Shown here: positions 1,125 to 56,655 of the stretch, in pieces | Position numbering within the stretch: position 1 is the stretch's first letter | Layout: each line of letters starts with the position of its first letter | NCBI GenBank assembly: GCA_047967505.1 | Contig: CM106538.1 | DNA length: 64,000 nt | Reading direction: 5' to 3' (one strand) | Source: Dipteris shenzhenensis | Taxonomy: Eukaryota | Notes under the pieces: generated by a model | Told to the model about the DNA's origin: nothing | What the model saw: the letters and a program-made list of their open reading frames with translations, nothing else | Databases searched by the model: none | Program-made: the position numbers and the translations under genes

Positions 1125-2180
1125 TATGAGTCTCCTCTCGAGGTGGGTGTACAAGACTATATGCTGCATATGAAAAAACAATTCCACGGCTCCTGTCCAA
1201 GCATCAAACCTCTCACCACCATCTTACAGAGCAATGCCCTACACTGCAGGTCTAGGTCAATGATATTGAGGCCCCCTTCCCAAGTGGGTAGAATCAGGGT
1301 CTCCCAAGCCACCCTGGCTATGGCATCTATCATGCCATCTAGTCCACTCCACAAAAAGTTCCTTACTGGTCTCTTGAGCTGAGTGATACTAACACTTGAA
1401 TGGCACCAGCAAGAAAAAACAAACCAAGCAGTAGCCAGTAACACCTGGTTGACCACCACGACCCTAGATGCAAGGTCTAGTTTGACCAAATTCCAAAAAA
1501 GGAATTTTCCTCCTTATGCTCTCCAACACAGGAGAAAACTGTTGTGCAGAAGAGATGCCCACACCTACCTGGCACCCCAAATAGCTGACAGAGATACCCC
1601 TTTTAATACAAGTGAAACCAATATTAGCTCCCTTAGTCCGGAGTGTCCTCAGTGTTGATCCAAAAGCCATTGGATTTGTGCCAGTTTATATGTGCCTCTG
1701 CTGCCATGCAAAACAAATCCAATGCTATCCTAAAAGAAGTGAGCTTCTGTGGCGTGGCATCCAAAAAAACTGCCGTATCATTTGGTAGCTCACTGTCCAA
1801 TAGCTCATCTTCTTGTGTCAATGGAAGTCTCAGGTCAACAATATAAGCATGAGATCTAATGTAGATACTCATAGCTTCATCCACAAACAAGAAAAGAAAG
1901 GGGGCTAAAGGACATCCTTGACAGACTGATCTAGAGATCCAAACTTGTCTCACCTAACTCCTCCAATAATTACCTGGCTATGGGCTGATTTATAAAGAGT
2001 AGAGACCCCTCTAATCCAATCATCTGTAGATCCCCCTCTAATCCAATCATCTGTAGATCCGAAATGAAGAAGGGTTTCCTTAAGAAAGCCCCAATCTACC
2101 TTGTCATAGGCTTTCTCGAAGTCCAGGAGTAGAATGGCCAGCCTTTGGCCACTATGCATTGCCCACTCAAAAGCCTCTCA
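1125..2180 (-). mobile_element. Degenerate L1-like LINE family A, reverse-transcriptase region
   Basis: ORF fragments LLLDFEKAYDKVDW, SVCQGCPLAP and LLATAWF..GGLNII are colinear with ORF2 at 36551-39668. There are frameshifts and a ~27-bp tandem duplication near 2005-2060. Confidence 0.9.
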
Positions 2181-2274
2181 AAATGATAAGATGAAGATGA
2201 TTGAAAGCGATAGAGGAAAGCAAAGGTGAGAGTGCAGTATGCTCCCAACACTTGTTGATAAACATAAAGACTTC

Positions 2275-2815
2275 TTTTTTTTTTTTTTTCCATGAAAGAG
2301 ACTTCTATCAAGTAAGAGAAAAAACCCGCAAGAGCAAGCTCAAAGCAGAATACATCATGAAACCATGAGTATAAATAAACCCCTCAAAATGAGGTGGAAA
2401 ACAACCAAGGCTGAGGCTGAAAGTGCCACCTCAACCTTGTAAGAGTCTCAGAGAAGAAAGGAGAATCCTTCCATTCCCTGAAGAACGAAGCCCTCCTAGT
2501 TGAGGCTGCATGGGAGTCTCCTTGCATACTCGTCTATATGGCCATCAAAGTATGTATGGTGTTTGTCCAGATACTAGCCAATGTGTGCGAGGGATGAACT
2601 TGAGTTCCCTCCAATGCTGCCTCTGTGCATCTGGCTCTCCAAATATGCCACGCTGCTATGCTCGCCAGTATCTCCCAAGAGGTATCCACAGAGGCATGTA
2701 CAGCTACAAAAGGAAGGTGTGGTACCACATCCAAAGAACAAGACTCAACCTGAAGACGTCGAATCGAAATGGCCCGAGAAGAGTCAAAGATGAAGACTTT
2801 GCAGATGCAAATTGA
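2275..2815 (-). mobile_element. 5'-truncated LINE family A 3' end with poly(A)
   Basis: T-run at ~2275-2289 followed by sequence very similar to 32934-33430 (ASIAAWHIWRARC). Confidence 0.88.
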
Positions 2816-2960
2816 AGGAAATACTTGAAGATGGAGGGGATACTCGACGGTTCCTCCTCCTTGCGGGAAGGGAAGGGCAAGAAATGAGAGAGGTGGGGCT
2901 ATTCCTGATATGAGCGTGGAGTAAAGGCTTCGAGTGCCCCATGCCAAGCTCTACATGGTG

Positions 2961-3395
2961 TTTTTTTTTGGGCAAAAAAATACTTTTATTAAGTATGAAT
3001 GAAAACCACAGAGCAAGCTCAATTCAAAAGTACATTATGTCAATATAAACATGAGAGAAATCAAAGCTCAAAAAGAGCTAGCAAATAACTAGGGATGAGG
3101 CTGAAAATGCCAAGTCAACCCTGAGACAGAATCAGAGAAGAAAAGAGATCCACTCCAAACTCTGAAGAAAGTGTTCCTCCTAGCAGAGGTTGCTCTCGAT
3201 GACCCTTGCATACTCGCCTATATGACCATCAAGGTATGCATAGTATCAGTCCAAATACTGGCCAATGTTTGAGAGGGGTGAACTTGGAATCCATCCAATG
3301 CCTTTGTACATCTGGCTCTCCGAATATGCCAAGCTGCAATACAAGCTAGAATCTCCCATGATGTCTCTACCGAAGCATGTGCAGCTCTGAAAGAA
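2961..3395 (-). mobile_element. 5'-truncated LINE family A-related 3' end with poly(A)
   Basis: T-run at 2961-2969. The 3' UTR matches the reverse complement of 56230-56311, and a degenerate WEILACIAAWHIRRARC region is present. Confidence 0.82.
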
Positions 3396-3901
3396 GTAAA
3401 AGCAACAGGACCATGACTCTACTAATTGTCAGCAAACCAAAAAATCCCCATCCATAGTTTTTTCCATACGTGACCATACGCATACGTCATACGGGTACGG
3501 AAGTATGATTGGAGTATGGTTCAGCCCTTGGGGCTGAATCATACGTGACCCTAATTTTCAGAAAAATATAGATTGTACACATTTACTTGAGAGAGAACTG
3601 CAAAACTTTCAACTTCAAACTTTTATTGATTTTAAAGTCGTGAATCATGAATCATGATTCATGGAAGAGTGCAGGGACTGGATTCCGTCATCTGATACAT
3701 AGTGATAAACACCAAAACATCATGATCAATCATCCAAGGTAGCAAGTAGTAGATACTAGAAAAGTGAACGAGGCCTGGGCCCTGTAGGCTGCAGGTACTA
3801 CATCAAAGGCAAGCTAGAAAACATCATATAACAAACTGAAAAGGCTGCCAGCCCTGCAGGCTGCCACAGCTAGGAAACAAAACTGAAATGCATCACAACT
3901 G

Positions 3902-22204: not shown

Positions 22205-23352
22205 TCCTGCCTTGAAGAGCATCTCTGCCACCACACCAAACCTCTTGCCAATAACTAAAAGAAGCCAGTGATAAACTGAGGGAAGACCAGGGAACCTGAT
22301 GAAAACAGAAACTCCCTGCTTGTCCTCTTCAACTGGGTCAAATCCCAGTTGAAAAGGAAACAAAAAGATCCTCCTGTAGCCTAGAAGTAGAAACCCGGCC
22401 TGTAGCAGGTCTCTCGTGACATGCGGGGAATCTAGGCACACCTGAAAGAAACCCCGTCCCAACAAACGAACATCCTTGAGGTGGGGGGCGAGGTCCTGAG
22501 GAAGCGTCGACAACATCCAATCTCTAGCTTGTGACTTGGAGGGGTGTGAGCCATGAATGCGTGCGAAGAGAGTCGTGGAACACTCATGTTCGAAATCCTT
22601 TTGCAACTGCTGTAGCTCGTCTTTTGAAAAAGTGACAGTTCTCGCGGCCGGTGTGAGCGGAGACGGATTGACTGAATGGGAACCCATTCGTCAATCGAGG
22701 TGTGTAGGCCGATTCAAACACAAAATAAAAACTCCGTCTGCTTTCCTGAATCCCAGGAGACCCCTATAGGAGAATAGGGGTAATCCAGATGAAGGAGAGG
22801 GTGAAGAAGAAGGGAGAGAGAAGAAAAAAAACCAGGGGGAGACAGCGGGGAGGAGGGAAGAGGAGGGGAGGATAGGGGAGAGGAGTGGAGGATAGGGGGA
22901 GAAGAGGAGTAGAGGAGAGGGGAAGGAGAAGGGAGGAAAAGCAGCAGCACGCTGCAGCGGGGGGAAAGCAGCAGCAGGAGCGGGGGGGGAGCAGCAGGCT
23001 GCAGTGGGGGGGGGAGCAGCAGCAGGGGCGGGGGGGGGAGGAGGCTGCAGCGCAGGGGGGGGACGCTGCAGCGCGGGGGAAGGGGCAGTGCGGGGGAGAG
23101 GGCAGGTAGGAGGGGGCAGCGAGGAGGGAAGGGAGGGGGCAGGCAGGAGGGAGCAGGAGGAGCAGCAGGGAGCGGGGAGAGAGGCAGCAGGGAGCGGGGA
23201 GAGGAGCAGCAGCAGGAGGGAAGGGAGGGGGCAGCGAAGGGGAGCGGGAGGAGCAGCAGGGAGCGGGGGAGCAGCAGTGAGCGGGGAGAGCAGCAGGGAC
23301 CGAGGAGAGCAGCGGTGAGGAGGGGAACTGGAGGAGCGGGGAGCAGCAGCAG
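22205..23352 (-). mobile_element. LINE family A 5' portion (C-rich leader plus ORF1 N-terminus), 3' part lost
   Basis: ORF 22181-22687 (TFSKDELQQL..GSHPSKSQARDWML) matches ORF1 at 35014. The leader resembles 34300-34980. Confidence 0.9.
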
Positions 23353-26345
23353 TTCTAAATTCTTTGGAAGAGCAGCCTTTATCTGTAAAGGCTCTTTGTC
23401 TTGCTCTAGTCTCCCATTTAGCCAGTTTCCTGTGATCATTTAGTTTAAGACAATGTCTAGCCTGGCATAGTGTTGTTTGCTCATGCATGGACAACGAACG
23501 AAGATAGCTGAGTTCAGTGAGGTCTTGACAAGTGAATTTGGCCTGAGCAATGGTTTCCCTCAGAGTCTTCATGTAAGACTTGCCATAAGCTCTAATCACA
23601 ACTTGCATTTTGGAAACAAAAGAATCCCAGGCATCACAATATGAATATGGTTGCGAGAAGACAGAGAATGAGATGCTTCAGTAACCATGGCCTTGAAAGC
23701 AGCCTGTTGCAAATAGCTATTGTTTACGATCAGATGTCACCTTTGTGGCAATCTCTCATTTGACATAGCATGAAAGGATAGCTGCAACCATAGAGGTGCA
23801 TGATCTGAATGCACTAAGGCATAGTCAATCCACATTTTGCATGTAAAATCCCCATTTTGTTGTGGAGCTACACTATACCATCGATCCAGACGTGCCTGAT
23901 AAGAAGAAATGGCATTATGTTGGAAGGTGTATCCAGGTGACAAAGGCTGCAATTCCTTCCAAAGGTCAACCAAATCCAGATGCATCAGTAATTGGGACCA
24001 TGCATGCCTTTCAGGAGTTAACATATGATCATGTCTGGAGGTATTGTCACCCTGTTGTGGAGCATTATTGAAATCCCCACATATGAAGGCATGATATCTC
24101 CATGGATATTGTTGCATGGCATCCCAAATTGCAGTTCTTTCTCTAGAGGATTGAGGTGCATAAATAGAAGCAAATTCAAACACCTCTCCTCGAATAATGC
24201 ATTGAAGAACAAGCCATCTGCCCTTGTTGTCATTTAAAGCAATAACTGGTTGAAGCTCATGTTTGATCAAAAGGACTACCCCTGAGAAAGAGTGCTCCCC
24301 AGCATAGAAAATATCATAACCACAGTAGTGTCCTGTCTTTCTTGCATAGACGTGTTGGTTGTGTTCTTGTAATGCCACTATGTAAGGCTGAAATCTATTG
24401 ATGTACAGCCACACAGATTTCCATTTCCTATTGTCACACAGCCCCTGGACATTGAGTGTAAAACATTTGATATCAGCAGTCATATTTACAGATATTTATA
24501 GTAATATAACAACTATGTACAGCAGCAAAATTCATGATGTCAGCCCTGCATTTCTATCTCAGGGTCAAGGCCTCTCCCCTCAGAAGAAGTAGCCACCTGA
24601 GGAGTAGACAGCAAAGCAGCAACCTCTTCTTCAGGGAAGAGTGTTCTGCTAGCTGTCACTGCAGGCCATGTGATCCCAATTCCTGTATTGACCTCTGGGG
24701 TGTTTCCACTAGAAGACGCACCATTCCAAGTGCGAGGGGGTGGAAGTCTTTGAGCAGAAATAACTTTTCTTGGACTTTGCCATCCATCAGTTGGAGGTTT
24801 GTGTCCTTTTGTCGAGGGTTGAATAGCAGGAGGTGAATGTGAAAAAACATTCCCATTTGAAACCACTAGAGCTTTGCCTTTATCCTGATTTCCAGAAAAC
24901 TATCTACTATCTTTGTTTTTATTTGCAATGGAGGTAGGAGCATCCTTAGTAGGCATTTGAACCGACAAAGTGGCAGGAGGCATTTTATGCTGATTCATTG
25001 GACACTGTGAAGCCATGTGTCCAAATTTTTTGCACTCAAAACAAGCCCCTGCAAATAATCCCCATTTCAGTTTATAAAAAGCACTTCCCATGTCCACATT
25101 ATTCACCGTGACTGAATAAGAGTCCGGTGTGGGATTTTTAGTATCCCAGAGAATGCAAAATCGATTCGAGTTGCCATTAGGCCGTGGTGGGCAGACCACT
25201 TTGCCTAAAGATGCTGCAATTTTAGGCAAGAGTGAGGCCATGCATTGTGAGAAGTCTACAACTTCAACCCAGACCGGGCATCTGTGTCGGATTAAAGCGT
25301 GAAAATCTCTTGTGGGAGACCATGGCAATACATGCACCATTTGCTGCCCAAAATAGAGAGGCGAATGTTCCAAAAGCATTTGTCTGTGTATCTCATCCAC
25401 CGTGATAACCTCAAAAAACCCCCTGGCTGCATAGTGTACTTTGCAAACAAATGAGCCAGCCACTGTGCGAGTCAACCAGTTGCCTATCTTTGTGGCAGGT
25501 GGCATCTGGCCTGGAAAAAATAATATGACTGTAGTTTTAGCATATTCTTTGACTGGATCCACAATTTCATCTACTTCAACCATGAGGCCAACTGAAGGAA
25601 CCAAGTCTTTCCACTCTTTCCTTGTGTCTGCAAATCCTTCATGCATGACATCATAGACCAGTTGGGCCTCAAGAGTATCATGTACCGGGTCATGCTGACC
25701 CTCAGCTTGCTTTTGCTTCTTGCAATGAACCGAACGCTCCTTTTGAAACGTTTTTTCATAGGAATATTTAGCCATAGCTTTGTAAAAAGTGGAACTCAGA
25801 AAGGAGGTACTTGTAAAAGGGTAGTGGAGTAAAAAAACCAGTCCCAAAAAAATGCCCACAGGAAGCCCACAAAGAAGAGAAAAAGAGTATATTTGTAAAG
25901 AGATAGAAGGGAAAGAGGGATGTAGAGGTCGAGAGAAGATAATAACAGTTTTGTAGAGGAAGAAGAGAGAAAAACCAGTAAAAAAACCCAGATGAACTAT
26001 ATTTCAGAGGAAAAAGGAAGATTTTGGCGATGGGAAAGGTGCAGCAGACCCAAAGACTGAAGAGGAGAAAAAACAGGAGCAAAAGCCTTCAAAATCAGCA
26101 CGTGGATGTAGTCCGGAAGCAAAACCCTGCGTGGAAACGATCCAGGAACCGGAGATGGACTGGGAGCAGCAAAACTGTAGCAAGCGGAAATGTCCGTACA
26201 GGCCGTACACCTGTACGGAATCCGTACGGAGCTCGGACGGGCTGTACGGCTGGTGATAAATGCTCCAGATCACTGGTTTTTGGGCTCTGATGCAGCGCAG
26301 CTGGGAGCTGAGGCTCACGGGCTGGTTGCTTGAGGCTCTAGAGCT
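23353..26345 (-). mobile_element. LINE family B 5' portion: leader, ORF1 and APE endonuclease; RT missing
   Basis: ORF1 at 24540-25859 has RGFFEV, VLPWSP and CFECKKFGHMASQCP, with a premature stop at 24900. The EN at 23737-24483 has TLNVQGL, LQEH, IYAP, GDFN, RLDRW and SDHAP. The EN is homologous to 29761-30525. The 5' end abuts CT/CA repeats. Confidence 0.9.
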
Positions 26346-31190: not shown

Positions 31191-32067
31191 TCTTCACACG
31201 CAGTACAGACAGTGGGGCTGGAAGGGGGTGGGATGGGGCACTGATGAGGCAAGAAGGGGTGGGAAACAGGGATCAATTGTGTCAAAGCAGGGGGGGGGGA
31301 CCTGAGGGCTGAAAGAATGTGAAATGGGCTGAAGGAGGCAGAGGTAGAGGTAGGCTGAAGGGGAGGCAGACTAGGGAAACAGTGAGGGAGAGTTGGGTTG
31401 GAGACAAGGGATGGAAGGAGGGAGGAGCATGTTCAGGAGCTGGGGAGCTCAAGATCCTTCATCAAAACCCAAAATCCCTTTTATAAGACCCTGTTGGGAA
31501 GCTAAATTCGAATTCTAGCTTTAGTAGCTGCATGTCTTAAGAATGCTTAGCAAGATCTTGAATGAAAACAAAGCATGGAACATTTTACGTGCACTTTGCT
31601 CCTGAAGAGAGTAAGCTATCAAACCTAATAGCAGGTTCCATTCATTGTCTGGAGTCCATCTTACCACGCGGCCTAAAACATGTTTGCTCAATGGCTTGAA
31701 TTGGGATTTCCTTATTAGTAGTAGGAGAAAGGGTGGCATGCCATCTGACCATGAAGTCTACGTTCAAGATGAGAGGGCCCACTATGTCAGATTATTTTGA
31801 CTATTCCAATCGGACCATGATTTTGCTACTTCCGACAATCTAGGTGTGCTTAACTTGTAGTCTGAGACTTTAGAAAAGTGTCCAAGGTGTCTTTTGGTTA
31901 TGTGAAAATTTTACTAAACCCTCTTATCGTCGCAGATCTCAATTTATTGAGCGTGTTAATATGGAAAAAAAAATTAAGGTATAAGACTTTTTGCTGGGTC
32001 CACAATGTTTTTGTTATGTGCCCAAAATCTACTTAATGTTTTGGACCATTCACGTGTCTGTATGCAG

Positions 32068-32180
32068 GTTAACCTTGGAATGGTTATAAAGGATAACACT
32101 ACTGAGTTTTCCGTACTGGTAGACCATGCTGTAGGTGGCTCAAGCATTGGAAGTGGACAGTTGGAGCTCATGCTACACAG
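32068..32180 (+). CDS. Alpha-mannosidase (GH38) internal exon, VNLGMVIKDNTTEFSVLVDHAVGGSSIGSGQLELMLH(R)
   Basis: Acceptor tatgcag| and donor |gt. The exon is 113 nt, phase 0-2. It continues directly from NYYP and has the conserved 'SVLVD.A.GGSS...GQ.ELMLHR' motif. Confidence 0.93.
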
Positions 32181-32292
32181 GTCGATTATGCAACATATCC
32201 TATTGTCAATGTATAATAAGTTCAAATCGCAGGAACTTGGGTTTGCCCCTGTACAATATGGACATCAAAAGATTCATGTATATATGTAACAG

Positions 32293-32377: not shown

Positions 32378-33029
32378 GTAAGACACTTTTGATACTGTCT
32401 TAAAAAATATTTACTTGAAAATCAGTGGGAAAGAAAGTCAAGATGTCTACATATATGTACTTAAACGATCGTGTGCTGTAGTAGGCCAGATTCACAAACC
32501 GAGACCACCTGCATTATTCCTTGAAGGATGGGTTCGCAGCTTTTGGTCTCCCAAGGTCTAGTAGTCACGACCATCCGTTTCTTAGAAATGGTTGTATTGT
32601 GTTCATTTTTGAAAAGTGTGAGATGGTTACAGAAGTGGTCCACAAAGGAACCTGGACGATTAGGAATCAACCACTATCAGCTCAGCTGTGTGAACCTTCT
32701 TTTAGTCCATACTGTCCTCCTCCGTCCAAAGCCCCTATCTGGGTGAGTTCCCTGACCTTCCGCTTTTTCTTTTTCCTTAAATTGAGACCCTTTGTTCTCC
32801 GCTGGGCCAATTCCTTGGAGTAGAAACAGAGAAGTTTATCAACCCGAGAGGCAACCCCCAAGCTTGTGTCCTGATGTAATTCAAAAGGACATCTCTTGTG
32901 CCCCTGGCCTTGTCCTTTTTTTTTTTTTTTTTTCATGAAAAAGACTTCTATTAAGTAAGAACAAAAACCCGCGAGAGCAAGCTCAAAGCGGAATACATCA
33001 TGAAATCATGAGGATAATAAAAAACCCCC

Positions 33030-34208
33030 TCAGAGTGAGGTGGAAAGAAACCAAGGCTGAGGCTGAAAGTGCCATCTCAACCCTGTAGTAGATTCAGAGA
33101 AGAAAGGAGAATCCTTCCATTCCCTGAAGAAAGAAGCCCTCCTAGCTGAGGCTGCACGGGAGTCCCCCTGCATACCCGTCCATACGGCCATCAGAGTGTG
33201 TACGATGTCTGTCCAGATACTAGCCAATGTGTGCGAGGGATGAACCTGAGTACCCTCCATAGCCTCTGTGCATCTGGATCTCCAGATATGCCAGGCTGCT
33301 ATGCTCGCTATAATCTCCCAAGAAGTATCCACAGAGGCATGTACAGCTGTAAAAGGACGGTGTGGAACCACATCCAACGAGCAGAGCTCAACCCGATGAT
33401 GTCGAACCGAAATGGCCCGGGAGGAGTCAAGTCCCTCATAGAAAACCTGAGGTCCTGTAAGAGAAAGCCAAGCCACCGAGCCCCAAGTCATAAAGAGTGG
33501 GGAATGGGCAAAGTGACTGAAGATCCTAGCTATCCCCATCCAAATCAATCTCGCCTGTCTGCAATCCCATAAGCAATGCTGAATAGACTCCGAAGTAGAA
33601 AGGCAACGAGGGCAAGTAGGGTCGGCTCCGAATCTGGACCTCCAAAGGTTCACTGCAATCCCTCCATGAATAGAAAGCCAAAAGAAGATAGTGATCTTTC
33701 TATTCCTGTGGGATTTCCAGAGCCTCCTCCAGAAGTACCTCTGCTGATCCGCAATAATACCAAAAGTCTCCCAATGAGGAACTCTGGAGGGTCTCCAGCC
33801 TCTACTACTGAGCTGAAATCTCCTGGCATTACTGACCGTGTAACGAAAGAAGGGGATGGTCTTCTCTCGATGCCCCGCGTCAATCCACTCCCACTCTCCG
33901 GGGTCCCACTGTAAATACTTGATGGGAACTCCTCCATAGAGCCAAAGTCTCCAAGACCCGGTGGAGAGTAACTGGGGGTCAGGGTCTAAGAACCACTCTG
34001 AATCTGATCCCTGCATCAAAAGGCCTACGACCCTGATAGGCTGAAAAGCAGACTCAAGCAATATATCATCTGTAGATCTGAGCAATCTGCCACCATCCTG
34101 GACACTGAAAACCAAAGCATCCTCTTGTGCACCTCGGAAGGCTAAGACCTGAAGTGGAACCCCGCCTCTCGAGAAAGTACCTGCCCAAGTGGAGGTAGTG
34201 AGAGGCAT
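33030..34208 (-). CDS. LINE A ORF2 C-terminal part (zf-RVT)
   Basis: Open 392-aa frame with FWRRLW..IFFWL, CPRCLSTSESIQHCLWDC and WHIWRSRC. It ends just before the 3' UTR and poly(A). Confidence 0.88.
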   Translation of the reverse strand: MPLTTSTWAGTFSRGGVPLQVLAFRGAQEDALVFSVQDGGRLLRSTDDILLESAFQPIRVVGLLMQGSDSEWFLDPDPQLLSTGSWRLWLYGGVPIKYLQWDPGEWEWIDAGHREKTIPFFRYTVSNARRFQLSSRGWRPSRVPHWETFGIIADQQRYFWRRLWKSHRNRKITIFFWLSIHGGIAVNLWRSRFGADPTCPRCLSTSESIQHCLWDCRQARLIWMGIARIFSHFAHSPLFMTWGSVAWLSLTGPQVFYEGLDSSRAISVRHHRVELCSLDVVPHRPFTAVHASVDTSWEIIASIAAWHIWRSRCTEAMEGTQVHPSHTLASIWTDIVHTLMAVWTGMQGDSRAASARRASFFREWKDSPFFSESTTGLRWHFQPQPWFLSTSL

Positions 34209-34299
34209 ATCATCTGTGTCGCCCCACCACTTGCACGTTGTTCACCAGAGGGGGAGTCAAGGACGTGACATTGAAACTGCACAGTGGCACTTTGAGCCT

Positions 34300-34960
34300 G
34301 AGCTGCTGCTCCTCCCCGTTCCCCTGCTGCTCCCCCTCCCTCAGCCCGTCTCTCTCCCCCCTCAGCCTGTCCCTAGCCCCTCCCTGCTGCTCCCCCCCCT
34401 CCCCCCCTGCTGCTCCGCCCCCTCCCCCTGCCTGTCCCTCGCTCCCTCCCTCTGTTCCCTGCTTCCGCCCCCTCCCCCCTGCTGTCCCGCCCCCTCTCCC
34501 TGCCTCCGTCCCCTCCCCCCTGCTGCTCCGCCCCCTCTCCCTGCCTCCGCCCCTCCCCCCTGCTGCTCCCCCCTGCCCCCTGCTGTCCCGCTCCCTCTCC
34601 CTGCCCCCGTCCCCTCCCCCCTGCTGCTCCGCCCCCTCTCCCTGCCTCCGCCCCCTCCCCCCTACTGCTCCCCCTCTCCCCCTGCCTCCGCCCCTTCCCC
34701 CCTGCTGCTCTGCTCCCTGCCTCCGCCCCCTCCCCCTTGCTGTCCCGCCCCCTCCCTTGCTGTCCCGCCCCCTCCCTGCTTGCTCTCCCGCCCCCTCTCT
34801 TCCTCTCACTCCTCCCTTTCTTCTCCTCTCCTTTCCCCTCCCTCCCTCTCAGCTTGCCCCTCTCCCCTCTCAGCCCCAGCCCCTCTCCTCCTTCCCTCCC
34901 CTTCCCCCCTGCTTCCTCCTAGCCTCCTTTCCCCTCCCTTGCCCCTCGCAGCTTTTTTGG
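34300..34960 (+). repeat. C-rich degenerate tandem repeat (CCCCCTGCTGCT-like) forming the LINE A leader
   Basis: Almost devoid of A. A homologous tract lies at 22770-23350 on the opposite strand. Confidence 0.9.
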
Positions 34961-35013
34961 AACGGAAGGAGCTTTTTTTTCTCTTCGAGTCGGCCTCCTC
35001 ACCTTGATTGGCG

Positions 35014-36651
35014 ATGGATTCCCCGTCAGCCAATCCTACTCCATCTCCACCGGCCGCGAAAACTATCACTTTCTCTAAAGACGAGTTGCAGCAGCTCAAG
35101 AAGGATGTAGAGATTGAGTGCTCTACCACTTTGCTAGCACGCATCTTCGGGTCTCACCCTTCCAGATCCCAAGCCAGAGACTGGATGCTTGCGGCTCTCC
35201 CCCCAGACCTCGCTCCTCGATTGGTAGATGTTCACCTTCTGGGACGAGGTTTTTTCCAGGTTGTTTTTGACACTCCAGAGGCTGCGAGCACTATGCTCAA
35301 GGCCGAGTTTTTACACCTGGGACACAGGAAGATCTTCTTTGAAGCCTTTCACCTTGGTTTCGACCCAGTTGAGGCAGATAAGAAATTCTTCTCGCTCTTC
35401 ATCAGGTTCCCCGGGCTTCCCCAGGTTTACCATCGACTTCTTTCTGTTATTGGGGAGCATTTTGGCGCAGTTGCTGAGATCCCACCCCTCCCTGGGTTGC
35501 CATTGACTGCAGCAGAGGCAACCAAGGCTGATGGGGTTCCTAGAGTTAGGGTCCTTTGCAAGGATCCTAACCTCGAGATGGACCACGTCATGATACAGCG
35601 CCCGGATGGTTCCTTTTTTCGCCAAAGAGTGGAGATTTCAGGCAGGCAGGACCAGTGCAGGATTTGCAGGACCTCGAGACACTTTGCCAGGGATTGTCCC
35701 AGGAAGAAGAAAAGGCCTAAGAAGGCCTCTGGTACAGCTACCGCCTCAGGGCATCGACAGGGGGGACAGGGGGGGGGATTAGACCCGGCACTTGCCCCTC
35801 GACCTCGGCAGAGGGGTGGTACAGGTCCAGCTCCTGCTCCTCATTCTTCACGTGGCGGTCCTGCTCAGTCAGGTGGTGGTACAGGTCCAGTACCTATTCC
35901 TCGGCCTCATCAGGGGGGTGGTACAGGTCCTGCTCCTCGACCCCCACCTCCCTCAGGCACACACGACGCTTTACAGTGGGTTCCAGTACGTGTGCAGGTC
36001 CCTCCTTCAGTTCACGAGGGTACCTTAGTAGACTCTGCTTCACCTCGAGCTGTCCTTCCTGTCTCACCTTGCACAGTCCGAGACGCTGAAGCTTCGACCT
36101 CCTCCCCAGTTGCAGCTTCTTCCTTAGATCCAGCACTGCCAGATGTTCCTCTTGAGGATGGAGAGATTTCCGCGGCTGGGCAGACACCGGGTAGAGAGCC
36201 TTCCTCACTCCCTCCCTTGGACAGGGGGAAGGGGATAGCTTACACTGTTGATCCTCTTCCCTCACAAGGGATCCTTCGTACTCCGGTGTCTGGATTGCTC
36301 CACAGGAACTCGTTTTCAGCCTTGGCAGAGAGTTCAGATTTCCCAGAGGAGGAGTTTGTGCCCGCTACTTTTGGGGAGCCAGTGGTTGGATTTCCTATTG
36401 ACAGGGCTTCTTCTTCAGGTGCCAGGATTCTTTCCCCTATTGACTTTCTCCACTGGGTTCCTTCCCTCCTTCCAGGAGGTCTTTCCCTGTTGAGGGGTTT
36501 GTTTCCGCCACTAGGTCGGGTAAGGTGTTCCACTCTACATCCTCCCGTCGATGAGGATTATCAGTTGGAGCCTAGGTGGCGTCCCACATCGCCGCCGCAG
36601 ACAGCTGATCCGGGATCAGCTTCATCCAGGTGTTACTGGGGGTCCCATTGA
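35014..36651 (+). CDS. LINE A ORF1 (DUF4283-like plus CCHC knuckle, Pro/Gly-rich tail)
   Basis: LGRGFFQV, FIRFPGLP and CRICRTSRHFARDCP motifs. It overlaps the ORF2 start by ~100 nt, so the true stop may have been altered. Confidence 0.88.
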   Translation: MDSPSANPTPSPPAAKTITFSKDELQQLKKDVEIECSTTLLARIFGSHPSRSQARDWMLAALPPDLAPRLVDVHLLGRGFFQVVFDTPEAASTMLKAEFLHLGHRKIFFEAFHLGFDPVEADKKFFSLFIRFPGLPQVYHRLLSVIGEHFGAVAEIPPLPGLPLTAAEATKADGVPRVRVLCKDPNLEMDHVMIQRPDGSFFRQRVEISGRQDQCRICRTSRHFARDCPRKKKRPKKASGTATASGHRQGGQGGGLDPALAPRPRQRGGTGPAPAPHSSRGGPAQSGGGTGPVPIPRPHQGGGTGPAPRPPPPSGTHDALQWVPVRVQVPPSVHEGTLVDSASPRAVLPVSPCTVRDAEASTSSPVAASSLDPALPDVPLEDGEISAAGQTPGREPSSLPPLDRGKGIAYTVDPLPSQGILRTPVSGLLHRNSFSALAESSDFPEEEFVPATFGEPVVGFPIDRASSSGARILSPIDFLHWVPSLLPGGLSLLRGLFPPLGRVRCSTLHPPVDEDYQLEPRWRPTSPPQTADPGSASSRCYWGSH

Positions 36652-39600
36652 TATATTATTTATTCAAGAGCACAAGCTGGATTATAGAGATTGTGCCAAG
36701 TCAGGCAAGTTACTTTCAGGACATACTTTTTGGTCGCCTGCATTGGGCACTAGGGGAGGCACTTCTATTTCAGTTTCGCAGTCGGTTCTCCCCTTAGTTG
36801 TTGGGCACGGAGTCATTATCCCCTCTAGAGCTCAGTGGATTATTCTCTTGAATGGAGGGCGTAAGGTTGGCTTCCTCAACCTATATGCCTCCAACATTAG
36901 AGGGGAACATGTCCTTATGTGGAAGACTTTGCTCTCCTGGGCCCCCATTGTGGATTCTTGGGTGATTGGAGGTGACTTTAACATGGTCGAGTTACCTTCA
37001 GACAAAAAAGGGGGTAGAGAAGGCGGACTTCACTCTTTGGAGAGAGCAGCTTGGGATGCCTTCCTTTTCCATTTCTGTGGCAGAGATACTTGGTGTGATG
37101 ATGCCTTTCTTATTCAGCCACAGTCCCTCCTGTTCTCTTGGTCGAACAGGAGGCAACAGATGCCTATTCATGCACGCATTGACAGATTTTATGTAGATGA
37201 CTGGGCACTAGACAGAGGTGGATCGGTATGCATTGCTGCGGGGGTTTCCACCTCAGACCATTTTCCTGTTGTTCTGGCTATCTCAGAGCCTCACTTGAGA
37301 GGCCGATCTGCCAGCATCAGGATCCCAGATGCCTTTTACACAGAGGAGGACCTTACAGAGGCAGCCCTACGGGTATGGTTTGCTCATGTCCAGGGAGGGC
37401 AGCCACATCCTTCACATTTAGCCGCTGCCCTCTCTGGTATTAGCGACTTTTACTGCTCAGTTGCTTCTACCAGGAGACGAGATATTCTCAGACGTGAGAT
37501 TGGTGTTCGCCAGCAGTTAGCAGCTTTGCAAAGGGAAGAGCAGAAACGGCCTTCAGATGCTTGGATTCAGGAGCGCCTTGCTGCAGCGAGGGCTCATCTG
37601 CAGTTATTGCTTGATCAGAGAGCAGAGTATGCCTTTCATGCACGGGAGTCCTTCTGGATTCAGATGGGTGGTAGAGTCAATAAACACTTCTTCTCTACTC
37701 TTGGCCCTAGACATAGTAGAGAGAGTGTATCTCAGCTTATTGACTCACATGGGGTTTTACAGACAGAGCCAGATGACGTCTTACGCATAGCTTCAGATTT
37801 CTATGCCACCCTCCTTACTGCTGATCCTGAGACACACGATATAGAGGATGCTAGACAGGCTATTTGGCAGAGTATCCCAGTGTTGGTGAATCCGGATATG
37901 CATGTTCTACTTGACGCACCTTTCACCAACACAGAGTTCAGGACTGCACTTTCAGCCCTTCACAAGGGCAAGTGCCCAGGTTTAGATGGCCTCACCCCGT
38001 CTTTTTTCATTGCATTTTGGGATATGATTGGAGACTATATTACTTCAGCCATGCAGGCCATTTGGGACTCTGGCGAGATGCCTGAATCGCTTACAGAGGG
38101 CCTCATCCACCTTATCCCAAAAGGAGGTAGCAGAAATTTATTGTCCCAGTGGAGGCCTATCACACTTCTGGGGACTTGTTACAAGATTCTGGCCAAGGCT
38201 ATCAGCCTCCGATTGCAGCCACTTCTCCCTGATCTTATCCACGACACTCAGACGGGATTTGTGCATGGCAGAAGTATTTTTTATAACATTTTTTCTTTCT
38301 GGGAAGCTTCAGAGTGGGCCATGCAGAGTGGCCAAAATCTTGCCATTCTACTGTTGGATTTTGAAAAAGCTTATGACAGAGTAGATTGGAGTTTTTTGGA
38401 GGGCACCCTTCTACGCTTTGGATTCACTGATGTTTGGATCAGAGGTGTTTCCTCTTTGTACAGATCAGCCCATAGCCAGGTACTTATTGGTGGGGTAAGG
38501 GGTGAGAGATTTCAGATTTCGAGATCAGTCCGTCAGGGATGCCCCCTTGCTCCTTTCCTTTTTTTATTCGTGGCCGAAGCTATGAGCATCTATGTTAGAT
38601 CTCAAGATGACATCTTTGGGCTGAGACTTCCTATCAGAAGAGAAGAGGAGCTGCTTGACAGTGAGTTGGCTGATGACACAGCGATTTATTTGGATGCCTC
38701 TCCACAGACATTGACTTCTTTCAGGACAACATTGGATTTATTTTGCTTGGCGGCAGGGGCGCAGATAAATTGGCATAAATCCAATGGCTTTTGGATCAGT
38801 GATGAGGACACTCCAGTTTGGGGACTTGACATAGGGTTCACTTGGGTTCAGAGGGGTGTGCCTATCAGGTATTTGGGCTGCCAGGTCGGCTTGGGTATTT
38901 CTACCACGCAGCAGTTTGCTCCCGTGTTGGAGAGCATCAGAAGGAAGCTTCTCTTTTGGAGCTCAGCCAAGCTGGATCTTGCCTCTAGAGTTGTGGTGGT
39001 CAACCAGGTCCTCTTGGCCACGGCCTGGTTTATTTGTTCATGTTGGTGCCGTTCTAGGGACTGCATCATTCAGCTCAGAAGACCGATCAGGAACTTTCTC
39101 TGGAGTGGGCTTGATGGCACAGCAGATGCCTTAGCCAGAGTGGCTTGGGAGACCCTCATCCTCCCTACACAGGATGGGGGTCTCAATATTATTGATCCAG
39201 ATTTACAGTGCAGAGCCTTACTTTGCAAGATAGTGGTGCGAGGACTTATGCCAGGACAAGAACCGTGGAAGGACTTTCTTATCAGCAGCATACAGAGGTG
39301 CACACCTTCCTCAGGAGGAGACTGGATGAGCAGTGTTAGATGGATTTTCACCTCAGCACACCTCAGATCACCTTCTTCCCCTCTCATGGTTGCCATTCTG
39401 AAAGCTTGGGCTAGTTTCAGAAGCTCTCTTCGGAGGATTCCTCCTTCCTCCCGGGAAGAGATTGATAGGCAGCCCATCATGTGGAATGACAGTATTTTAG
39501 ATGATCGTGGCAGACCACTGGGTGCCTCACTCTACATGCAGTGGGCCAGGTGGGAGAGGGGACCTGCTTCTTCTTTGGGATCTTGGAAAGCCTTCCGTAG

Positions 39601-39668
39601 GCTTCCAGAGGAAACCAAGTCAAGGTTGACAGGACATCTCAGAGGGAGTGCAGGGAGGATCTTGCAGA
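36551..39668 (+). CDS. LINE A ORF2 (APE endonuclease plus RT), broken at the inversion breakpoint
   Basis: Motifs IQEHK, GGDFN, RIDRF, SDHFP, CPGLDG, WRPITL, DFEKAYDRV, RQGCPLAP, LADD and YLG. The frame runs on into flanking DNA to 39721. Confidence 0.93.
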
Positions 39669-40778
39669 CTGGCCTGTCCTTTGAGTATGGCAGAAGACAA
39701 TCTTGTTTTGGTTGTAGTTGAGGCTACATTCCATTAGTTGTAGATTAGGAGTGGCCATCAAGTGCCTCAATCCCCGCTAGAGTCTTATCTCAGTTCCAGC
39801 GGTGGATAAGATCAGCGATAGTTATCATGTAAATCTTCAGACTCCCGGGTCTCTATTCGAGCAGTTCCTTTCTCAGAGGTACAGGGGCTCAGGGCATCCG
39901 GATAGGCCGGCTTCAGGGCGGATCACTCGACTTACGATCACATTTTTACACTTAGAGGGATCATTGAGGAGGCCAGACACAGGAGACAGAGAGTATATTG
40001 TTGCTTTGTGGATTTCCGCAAGGCATTTGACACCGTTCCCCGCGCCCAACTCATCAAACGCCTATAGGAGTTAGGCTACGACTCGGTGATTATCTGGGCA
40101 GTAGTAGCTCTCTATGAGCGGGTGACGGGGCAGGTCAGGATTGGCACCAGCTGGAACCCAGAGATCACGAGCACTATCGGAGTCAAACAAGGATGTCCCT
40201 TGTCACCGACTCTATTTGGCCTCTACATCGACGAGCTCGAGACCACCATCAGGACACTCGGAGGTGCAGGCTGCTCTCTTGCGGAGGCTGTTATCCAGAT
40301 TCTCCTTTACGCAGACGATGTAGTACTACTATCCTCTTCTGCTACTGGTCTTCAGTGACACCTAGATGGACTTCAGGTCTTCTGTGATACACATGACTTG
40401 AAGGTCAACCTTGGGAAAACCAAGGTGATGATCTTCAACACTTCCAGACCCGCTATGCATCGAGAGCAGTTCCTCTTCGCCGGTGACCCTGTTGAGATAG
40501 TTGACTCTTACACATACTTGGGCGTTGTCTTCTTAGGCCCGATCTTCACGATGCGCTCGGCGATGCAGGTCAAGATCAATCGGGGATACGCCGCTCTTGC
40601 CAGGCTGGAGCGACAGTGCTACCACTCCCATTGCCAGGACCTGCGGACCAAGTCTCTCCTTTTTGATTCTTTGGTCCGCCCAGCAGGCATGTACGGTAGC
40701 CCTTGGTGGGGAGTCGACCTTTCAGACATAGAGTGGGCTCGAGTCGAGCGCCTACAGATACTAATGTTTGCTCGGATG

Positions 40779-40982
40779 TGTTGGGGTAAAGGCACATTGC
40801 CACCCCTTTTATTAAAGATATGACACCTATGACTGTCTTAAGACAGTCATAGGGTGAAAAACCTAATCCTAATAAAACTTAAGAGTTTGTGGTGTGGCTC
40901 ATCACTTCACACCCGCATCTTGAGTGTCACTCTCTCTCTCACCCTCTCTCTGTTGTTCTTCTCCCTCTGACCTTCCCCTTCA
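40779..40982 (+). repeat. Copia 5' LTR
   Basis: Direct repeat of 46827-47030, followed by the PBS. Confidence 0.96.
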
Positions 40983-54558: not shown

Positions 54559-56655
54559 TTATTCCTCTTCTCACCTTCCTTGAGTGTGGGGATTCTTCGC
54601 ACTCCAGTGTCAAACCTGGTTCATAGGAACTCTTTTTTCATCCTGGGAGATATGGCGGAGATTGTGTTGCCTCTGCAGTTGAGGATGTTGTTATTGGATT
54701 TCCTATCAACAGAGCATCTCCTTTTGCAGGTGTGGGGAGTCTTTCTCTCATGGATTTTCCTTCCCTTGGCAACCTTGGGAGGAGAACTTCTACTCCAGAT
54801 ATTTGTTTCCACCACTAAGTCGGGTAAGGTGTTCCATCCGACTTTCTTCCACCTATGAGAATTGCCAATTGGAACATACAGGGCCTTGATGGTGTGCCAC
54901 ATCGCTGCTGTTGTAGGCAACTGATTCATAATCAACTTCATCCAGGTGTTAATGGGGGTCCATTAAATTTTTTTCTATTCAGGAACACAAATTGGATGCC
55001 AAAGATTGTGCCAAGTCAAGGAAGATGCTTTCTAGTTACACGTTTTAGTCCCCTGCAGTTGGCACTAGGGGAGGTACATGCATTTTAGTTTCGAACTCTC
55101 TTCTCCCCTTGGTTGTTGGACATGGATTCATCATCCCCTCTAGAGGTCAATGAATCCTTCTTTTGATTGGGGGACGTAAGGTAAACTTCCTCAACCTTTA
55201 CGCCCCTAATAATAGAGGGGATCATGTCCTTATGTGGAAGGAGCTTCTCTCTTGGGCCCCCAATCCAGATTCATGGGTTATTAGAGGTGAATTCTACATG
55301 GTGGAGTTGCCCTCCGACAAGAAAGGGGGTAAAGAGGGTGGCATTCACTTCTCAAAGAGAGCAGCCTTCTCGAATGGCTTCCGATTTTGGTTCAGTGGTA
55401 GAGATGCACGGTTTAATGATGCCTTTCACACTCAGCCACAATCACTCTTGTTTTCATGGTTGAACAGGAGGCTAGAGATGCCTATCTATGCACAGATTGG
55501 TAGATTTTATGTTGATGACTGGGCTCTAGGTAGAGGTGGGTCAGTATGCATTTCTACTGGGATATCCACTTCAGATCACTTTCCCATGGTATTGATGATT
55601 TCGGGGCCTTTTGAGAGGATGCTCTGCTAGTATCAAGATTCCAGATTCCTTTAATGGAGAGGAGGACCTCACAGTGGTAGCCTTGTAGGTTTTGATTTCT
55701 CGAATGGAGGGTGGAGTGCCGTCCCCTTTACATGTGACTGCAGCCCCAAGTGGTGTTAGTGATTTTTATCATTTGGTTGCTAGCACTAGGAGACATGACA
55801 TTCTCAGACATGAGATTGGTACTCACTAGCAACTGGCAGCCTTGCTAAGGTATGAGCGGAAAGTATGAGCGGAAATGGCCTACGGATGCTTAGATTCAGG
55901 AGCGCCTTGCTGTAGCAAGTGCTCATCAACAGATATTGCAGCTTGGTATATTTGGAGGGGCAGATGTACGGAGGCGATGGAGGGTTTACAGGTTCACCCT
56001 TCCCAGTCTATGGCCAGTATATGGACTGATACTATACACACGTTGATGGCCATCTGGGCGAGCATGTAGGGTTCCTCCAGAGCAGCTAGAGCCAGGAGAG
56101 ATATTTTTCAAAGTTTGGAGAGGATCTCTGTTCTTCTTTGAGTTTTCTTCAGGGTTGCGGTGGCATTTTCAAGCTCCACCTTGGAATTTTGTTAGCTCTT
56201 TTTAAGCTGTTTTTTCTTTCATGCATGTCATGATGTACTTCTACATTTGAGCTTGCTCTTGTAGATTTCATTCATACTTAATGAAGTAAATCTTTTTGCA
56301 AAAAAAAAAAAGTAGATGCTAACACACAAGCCAAAGATGATGCTAGATATGCTATATTGCAATGTATTTCTATGTTGGTGAAACTGGATATGCGGGTCTC
56401 ACTTGATGCACCTTTCACCAACATAGAGTTTAGAATTGATGTTCTTGCTCTCTATAGGGACAATTGCTCGCGTTCAGATGGGCTTACTCCCTTCTCCTTT
56501 ATTACTTTTTGAGATAATATTAAGGATCACATTACCTTAGCCCTACAAGGCGTTTGGGACTTTGGTGAGATGTCGGACTCACTTATAGGTGGTCTCATTC
56601 ATCTTATTCCAAAAGGGAGTAGCGAAAAATTAGTGTCTCAGTGGAGGTCTCCATA
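54559..56655 (+). mobile_element. Degenerate LINE family A copy (ORF1 end, EN, start of RT region)
   Basis: MRIANWNIQGL, FLNLYAPN, STSDHFP and LIHLIPKG...WR are colinear with 36260-38160. Confidence 0.87.
55935..56311 (+). mobile_element. 5'-truncated LINE A 3' end with poly(A), embedded in the older LINE A copy
   Basis: IAAWYIWRGRCTEAMEG motif and an A-run at ~56300-56311. The older element resumes afterwards. Confidence 0.8.

Follow-up and report, generated by a model that had tools for sequence, protein, structure and literature searches.

How two pieces of one long interspersed nuclear element (LINE) came to lie back to back on opposite strands, inside a single short direct repeat, is the question raised by positions 32904-39682 of a 64,000-nucleotide (nt) stretch of DNA from Dipteris shenzhenensis (GenBank assembly GCA_047967505.1, contig CM106538.1; the whole stretch is referred to here as the window). 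A previous sequence-only reading had placed the end of the second open reading frame (ORF2) and its poly(A) on the - strand and the leader, ORF1 and the rest of ORF2 on the + strand, and had proposed that these are the halves of one L1-type element inserted in one event by twin priming. The layout was borne out by the ORF translations, the Pfam domains and the repeat match and, in the orientation of the insertion (the window - strand), the composite reads flank, target-site duplication (TSD), inverted 5' part of 5.4 kb, filler, 3' part of 1.3 kb, poly(A), TSD and flank. The host element is a young copy of a plant-type L1-clade LINE, and the locus is probably the product of a single retrotransposition event that was resolved by twin priming. 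Some details required correction: the inner boundary of the - strand part, first set at ~34215, lies at 34219/34220; the N-terminal part of ORF2 has 1048 rather than ~1040 codons; and 34219/20-34288, which had been taken as family leader, is a filler that was overlooked at first and came to light in contig joints.

A single direct repeat around both halves

As had been claimed, one near-perfect TSD bounds the whole composite, its two copies (Table 1) matching at 14/15 positions with one indel. The local score of this repeat was reached by 4/20000 random 25-mer pairs drawn from the window, and the match adjoins both ends of the element exactly. The right-hand copy begins at 39669, exactly where family homology ends, and is therefore flank and not ORF2. 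The extension of a BLAST alignment to the related protein P0001 had suggested that this copy was itself ORF2 sequence, acting as a 14-nt priming homology; this was rejected because related copies depart at 39668. The first nick site, CCTTT/GAG on the primed strand (+ strand reading), is T-rich, the L1 endonuclease consensus being given as TTTT/A in a section of PMC2837659.

Adjacent breakpoints in uninverted relatives

A protein search for ORF2 relatives returned 10 with E <= 0.001 among 7470 candidates, four of which were aligned to both halves; all three ORF2 domains are present in P0001 (1448 amino acids, aa) and P0004 (1439 aa). On P0001-P0004 the two halves are complementary and without overlap (Table 1), as expected of the parts of one ORF2 in the sequence-only reading. 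The best full-length relatives are only 47-57% identical, and the closest named one, from the fern Adiantum nelumboides, is annotated as a hypothetical protein and shows 48% identity over 75% of the searched region. No protein of the same family crossing the breakpoint was found; a search for shorter proteins gave 1 match among 299 candidates (P0011, 66% identical), which stops at residues matching the end of the N half, short of the breakpoint. There is likewise no same-family copy spanning the breakpoint inside the window, and an exact 22-mer from the end of the N half had 0 matches in metagenome contigs.

The adjacency of the breakpoints was seen at the nucleotide level in Logan contigs of four public runs (X1-X4), aligned to 32400-40200 at 80% likeness so that related copies were included. 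Three of six listed runs contain part of the stretch (word shares 0.23, 0.12 and 0.07), and X4 gave no alignments. Six joints were listed in total, and for joints aligned under 95% likeness the tool itself gives a warning. The sequence-only reading had predicted that the breakpoints at 39668 and ~34215 would be adjacent in a family consensus; contigs of related copies join 39668 to 34220 on opposite strands in X1 (1 contig, shorter side 152) and X2 (1 contig, shorter side 56), two runs from 2 studies, with 0 letters between and 0 shared letters. Record 24 of X3 (302 letters) matches 39400-39668 and then differs from the window. The depth of X1 is 0 at 39708-39968, so that the 152-letter side lies to the left of 39668, in ORF2, and its depth of 3.21 at 34227-34487 is that of the 70-nt piece described below alone (13.5 x 62/261), which places the other side of the joint in the zf-RVT half, to the left of 34220. 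In uninverted relatives the sequence therefore passes from 39668 directly to 34220 in reverse complement, and the two breakpoints are neighbours within ~1 nt.

Contigs 99% alike were present for both halves, with 2 differences in 303 letters for record 17 (32988-33291) and 2 in 334 for record 5 (37649-37982). The joints 33287->33626, 33293->33433 and 39128->39455 are read as deletions in other copies. Positions 37368 and 38720 are joined on opposite strands in one X2 contig only (depth 2, side 44), which may be noise or come from a further inverted copy.

A piece of another retroelement at the inversion junction

Between the two halves, a joint 34288->39988 on the same strand was present in X1 (side 70) and X3 (side 69), from which it follows that another repeat family has 34219/20-34288 joined without a break to the sequence beginning at 39988. 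That position falls within a reverse transcriptase (RT) fragment of a different retroelement family, located in the right flank at 39906-40823 and carrying two in-frame stops, with RVT_1 matches at 39906-40064 and 40068-40355; when read in the frame leading on into this RT, the two sides of the joint are in register. Relatives of the right-flank fragment are multi-copy in the runs. No other copy of the filler was found in the window, the matches being <=16 nt with E >= 0.3. The filler was also considered as the missing piece of the neighbouring fragment and rejected as such, the fragment having its own diverged version of the stretch; the alignment of the filler to the DNA of that fragment scored 8.0 and is not above shuffles (mean 4.8, standard deviation 2.0, maximum 13.5).

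The filler has the orientation of the adjoining leader and inverted 5' part. A same-orientation partner is the outcome of template switching or of a fused or read-in transcript according to a section of PMC13174262, and the filler would be either a template-switch filler or a 5' transduction. Filler and C-terminal part possibly overlap by 1 nt at 34219/34220, the joint being printed at 34220 and the X1 filler piece covering 34219-34288.

At the boundary of filler and leader, 34285-34303 is complementary at 17/19 positions to 33056-33074 in the last ORF2 codons. In the sense of the element this 19-nt stretch is a direct repeat of the ORF2 end placed at the 5' end, which is an odd placement; the match is at chance level (E 0.3) and was set aside.

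Twin priming weighed against other origins

The adjacent breakpoints, the identity of the repeat as flank and the absence of an inverted repeat at the breakpoints support the proposal of a single insertion by twin priming. All three reading frames (ORF1 and both parts of ORF2) are open, which fits one recent event, and the contigs 99% alike for both halves also count in favour of the proposal. In such an event, the endonuclease would nick the target at the first nick site, and the T-rich end would prime on the poly(A) to give a first complementary DNA (cDNA) that ends at 34219/20 and consists of the 3' untranslated region (UTR) and the final 397 codons of ORF2. A nick in the second strand would follow 14-15 nt off, its free 3' end priming internally on the same RNA at 39668, and the second cDNA would be copied through RT, endonuclease, ORF1 and leader to or near the 5' end of the RNA. 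This second cDNA would then gain 69-70 nt of RT sequence from the other retroelement, either because the RT, on reaching the 5' end of the first RNA, jumped to a second one, or because the source transcript had begun in an upstream fragment of that element, and the two cDNA ends would be joined with an overlap of at most 1 nt. A three-template insertion, in which second-strand synthesis reached the very 5' end of the LINE RNA and the RT then jumped onto an unrelated retroelement RNA before joining, is a tentative version of this scheme, possible though somewhat doubtful.

Several observations weigh against a single twin-primed insertion. The two TSD copies differ by their one indel, and the unique flank at 32661-32921 has depth 0 in all four runs. 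The 39668/34220 joints come from a single contig per run, and from related copies rather than the locus itself. As printed at 39668/34220 the frames are one base out of register, being in register when the C part starts at 34219, a 1-nt question for which the resolution at 80% likeness is too coarse. There is also no microhomology at 39668/39669 between the TSD end and the element ("both" = 0), unlike in human 5'-inverted L1, where microhomology at that junction is frequent according to a section of PMC2912911. No joint skipping the element was listed in the runs, whose contigs lack depth at 32661-32921 (all four) and at 39708-39968 (X1), so that this negative is uninformative as to an empty allele.

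An alternative origin, by which a collinear full-length - strand copy was inserted by ordinary target-primed reverse transcription (TPRT) and 34220-39668 was inverted afterwards by breakage and rejoining, would give an end product that looks identical. It is nevertheless unlikely, as one breakpoint would have to coincide exactly with the element's 5' end at the TSD boundary, and the open frames leave little time for a second event. A later inversion by recombination is also disfavoured by the lack of an inverted repeat at these points that could have promoted it: the score there is 5.0, below the random mean of 5.59, and 83% of random pairs score as high or higher.

Very unlikely, in turn, is an assembly artefact that put together two members of a high-copy family in the wrong orientation. 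Such an error would be allowed for by a family that is young and multi-copy, its contigs in the runs being 99% alike, and by the fact that no independent read spans the junctions. A misassembly, however, would account neither for the 14/15 direct repeat placed exactly at each outer end, nor for breakpoints that are exact neighbours in the family, nor for a foreign filler of 69-70 nt at the inner junction, and the window is without any N.

TPRT does not normally produce 3'-truncated LINE copies, a point against two separate insertions. Two independent events leaving a 5'-truncated and a 3'-truncated copy side by side, or a second RNA used on the second nick in the "dual priming" proposed for L1 in a section of PMC2837659, are extremely improbable even with truncated family copies lying head to tail elsewhere in the window, since the outer end of the + part is without poly(A), that part ends at the exact base preceding the start of the - part in uninverted copies, and a single TSD encloses both.

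Features of the two halves

Table 1. Coordinates of the composite insertion in the window and alignment of its ORF2 halves to related proteins.
Feature	Position	Strand	Evidence or remark
TSD copy beside poly(A), 15 nt, CTGGCCTTGTCCTTT	32904..32918	.	last three T shared with T run
Poly(A) tail, 18 T on + strand, 15 outside TSD	32916..32933	-	read from sequence
3' UTR, ~96 nt	32934..33029	-	read from sequence
ORF2 C-terminal part with zf-RVT, 396 codons + stop (397)	33030..34220 (start 34219 or 34220)	-	translation, Pfam, protein alignments, contig joints
Filler, 69-70 nt, piece of RT gene of another retroelement family, sense on +	34220..34288 (start 34219/20)	+	contig joints
Leader / 5' UTR, C/T-rich with tandem array	34289..35013	+	homologous leader of another copy at 23355..22688
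ORF1, intact, 545 aa + terminal stop	35014..36651	+	translation, Pfam
ORF2 N-terminal part, endonuclease + RT, 1048 codons, first Met 36551	36524..39668	+	translation, Pfam, alignments
TSD copy beside inverted part, 14 nt, CTGGCCTGTCCTTT	39669..39682	.	family homology stops at 39668
Relative P0001	N half 1-1059; C half from 1070		
Relative P0002	N half 7-507; C half from 528		
Relative P0003	N half 1-965; C half from 980		
Relative P0004	N half 2-1029; C half from 1044		

The ORF2 set of plant L1-clade LINEs (APE-type endonuclease, RT and C-terminal zf-RVT) is present and shared out over both halves. In the + strand half, Exo_endo_phos (2.5e-6) and RVT_1 (8.3e-26) are above the Pfam cut-offs, and no zf-RVT was found in this frame in the Pfam search. 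There are no internal stops in the 1048 codons to 39668, past which another 17 codons, read through TSD and flank, lead to a stop at 39719-39721. The remaining domain was found on the - strand, where an open frame at 34241..33030, with its stop codon at 33030-33032, contains a zf-RVT match (E 4.3e-8) that exceeds the Pfam cut-off. With RT and zf-RVT on separate pieces of ORF2, the copy cannot function as an autonomous element; what the locus retains, behind its own leader, is an intact ORF1 and an ORF2 cut at its C-terminal end. The poly(A) 3' end, also a feature of the plant L1 clade, is represented by the T18 run; other copies in the window terminate likewise, and an 87%-identical copy at 2275-2787 stops at the same point, also in a T run.

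The 5' part contains the entire ORF1, in which a CCHC knuckle was read from the translation, and 725 nt of leader. The leader of the copy at 23355..22688 (- strand) can be aligned from ~34300, and it is plausible that the inverted 5' part is complete. No family contigs were found over 34289-34487 in the runs examined. The tandem array in the leader comprises 8.5 copies of a 41-nt unit (34457-34799, 74% matches), which may be a repeated promoter or leader unit; a similar array occurs in a related copy at ~22830-23355 on the - strand.

Neighbourhood and related copies

The left flank contains a match to Glyco_hydro_38C, the C-terminal domain of alpha-mannosidase (E 6.8e-8, 31978-32289), and a separate DUF4283 frame (E 4.3e-8, 32485-32823), which place the insertion beside a gene exon and the remnant of another LINE ORF1. 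Further fragments related to the element are spread over the window. A copy on the + strand at 54562-56650 comprises the end of ORF1 and ORF2 codons 1-362 and then 433-544, and its continuity is broken at 55935-56311, where a 5'-truncated 3' end of 376 nt with an A run, alike in kind and orientation, lies in between. Three related fragments follow in series on the - strand at 1129-3406, two being 5'-truncated 3' ends with T runs at ~2275 and ~2961 and the third the middle of ORF2 (codons 589-933, 2192-1130). At 22220-23700 the - strand holds a related copy's leader and the start of its ORF1, with 68% aa identity over 156 aa; this copy appears to be inserted in the endonuclease-RT linker of another LINE, upstream of 23355.

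Comparison with known insertions and implications

The original twin-priming paper for mammalian L1 is said to be that of Ostertag & Kazazian in 2001, and the process is described for mammalian L1 in sections of PMC2837659 and PMC2912911. As in mammalian twin-primed L1, one TSD of 14-15 nt surrounds two parts of a single element that lie in opposite orientation, a poly(A) closes the sense part, the first nick is T-rich, and the element's own order places the inverted part's outer end next to the inner end of the sense part. Unlike in mammalian twin-primed L1, the host is a plant-type L1-clade LINE, a foreign filler of 69-70 nt occupies the inversion junction and no deletion or duplication beyond ~1 nt is found at the breakpoints; the inverted part, in contrast to the usual mammalian case, is untruncated or nearly so, extending past ORF1 into the leader for 725 nt or more. 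The filler resembles the partner sequence of chimeric L1 insertions (U6/L1 and others, as described in a section of PMC13174262) in being non-self sequence in the same orientation on the 5' end of a LINE cDNA. It differs from these in lying within a twin-priming junction and in that the partner is an internal piece of the RT gene of another retroelement rather than a small RNA or first exon. The element itself shares with plant L1-clade LINEs the APE-type endonuclease, RT, zf-RVT and poly(A), and departs from them in that the inversion divides its ORF2. Its ORF1 has the CCHC knuckle, but the DUF4283-like match there remains below the Pfam cut-off (24.5 vs 27.2 bits).

No description of twin priming in a plant LINE was found in the literature searched, subscription journals lying outside that search, so that its absence is unproven. 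As a clean case, with its TSD, neighbouring breakpoints and open frames, the locus indicates that the same resolution of TPRT occurs in plant-type L1, and it can serve as a search image in counts of copies of this kind. The locus also carries a caution for annotators: plant LINEs annotated as "3'-truncated" and inverted 3' ends close to them may result from one event. Taken by itself, it is a clean but unsurprising example outside mammals and opens no new mechanism. If the insertion did involve three templates and many such copies were present genome-wide, twin priming and template jumping between elements would be general properties of the L1 clade in plants and animals, and would be a source of new 5' ends for plant LINEs.

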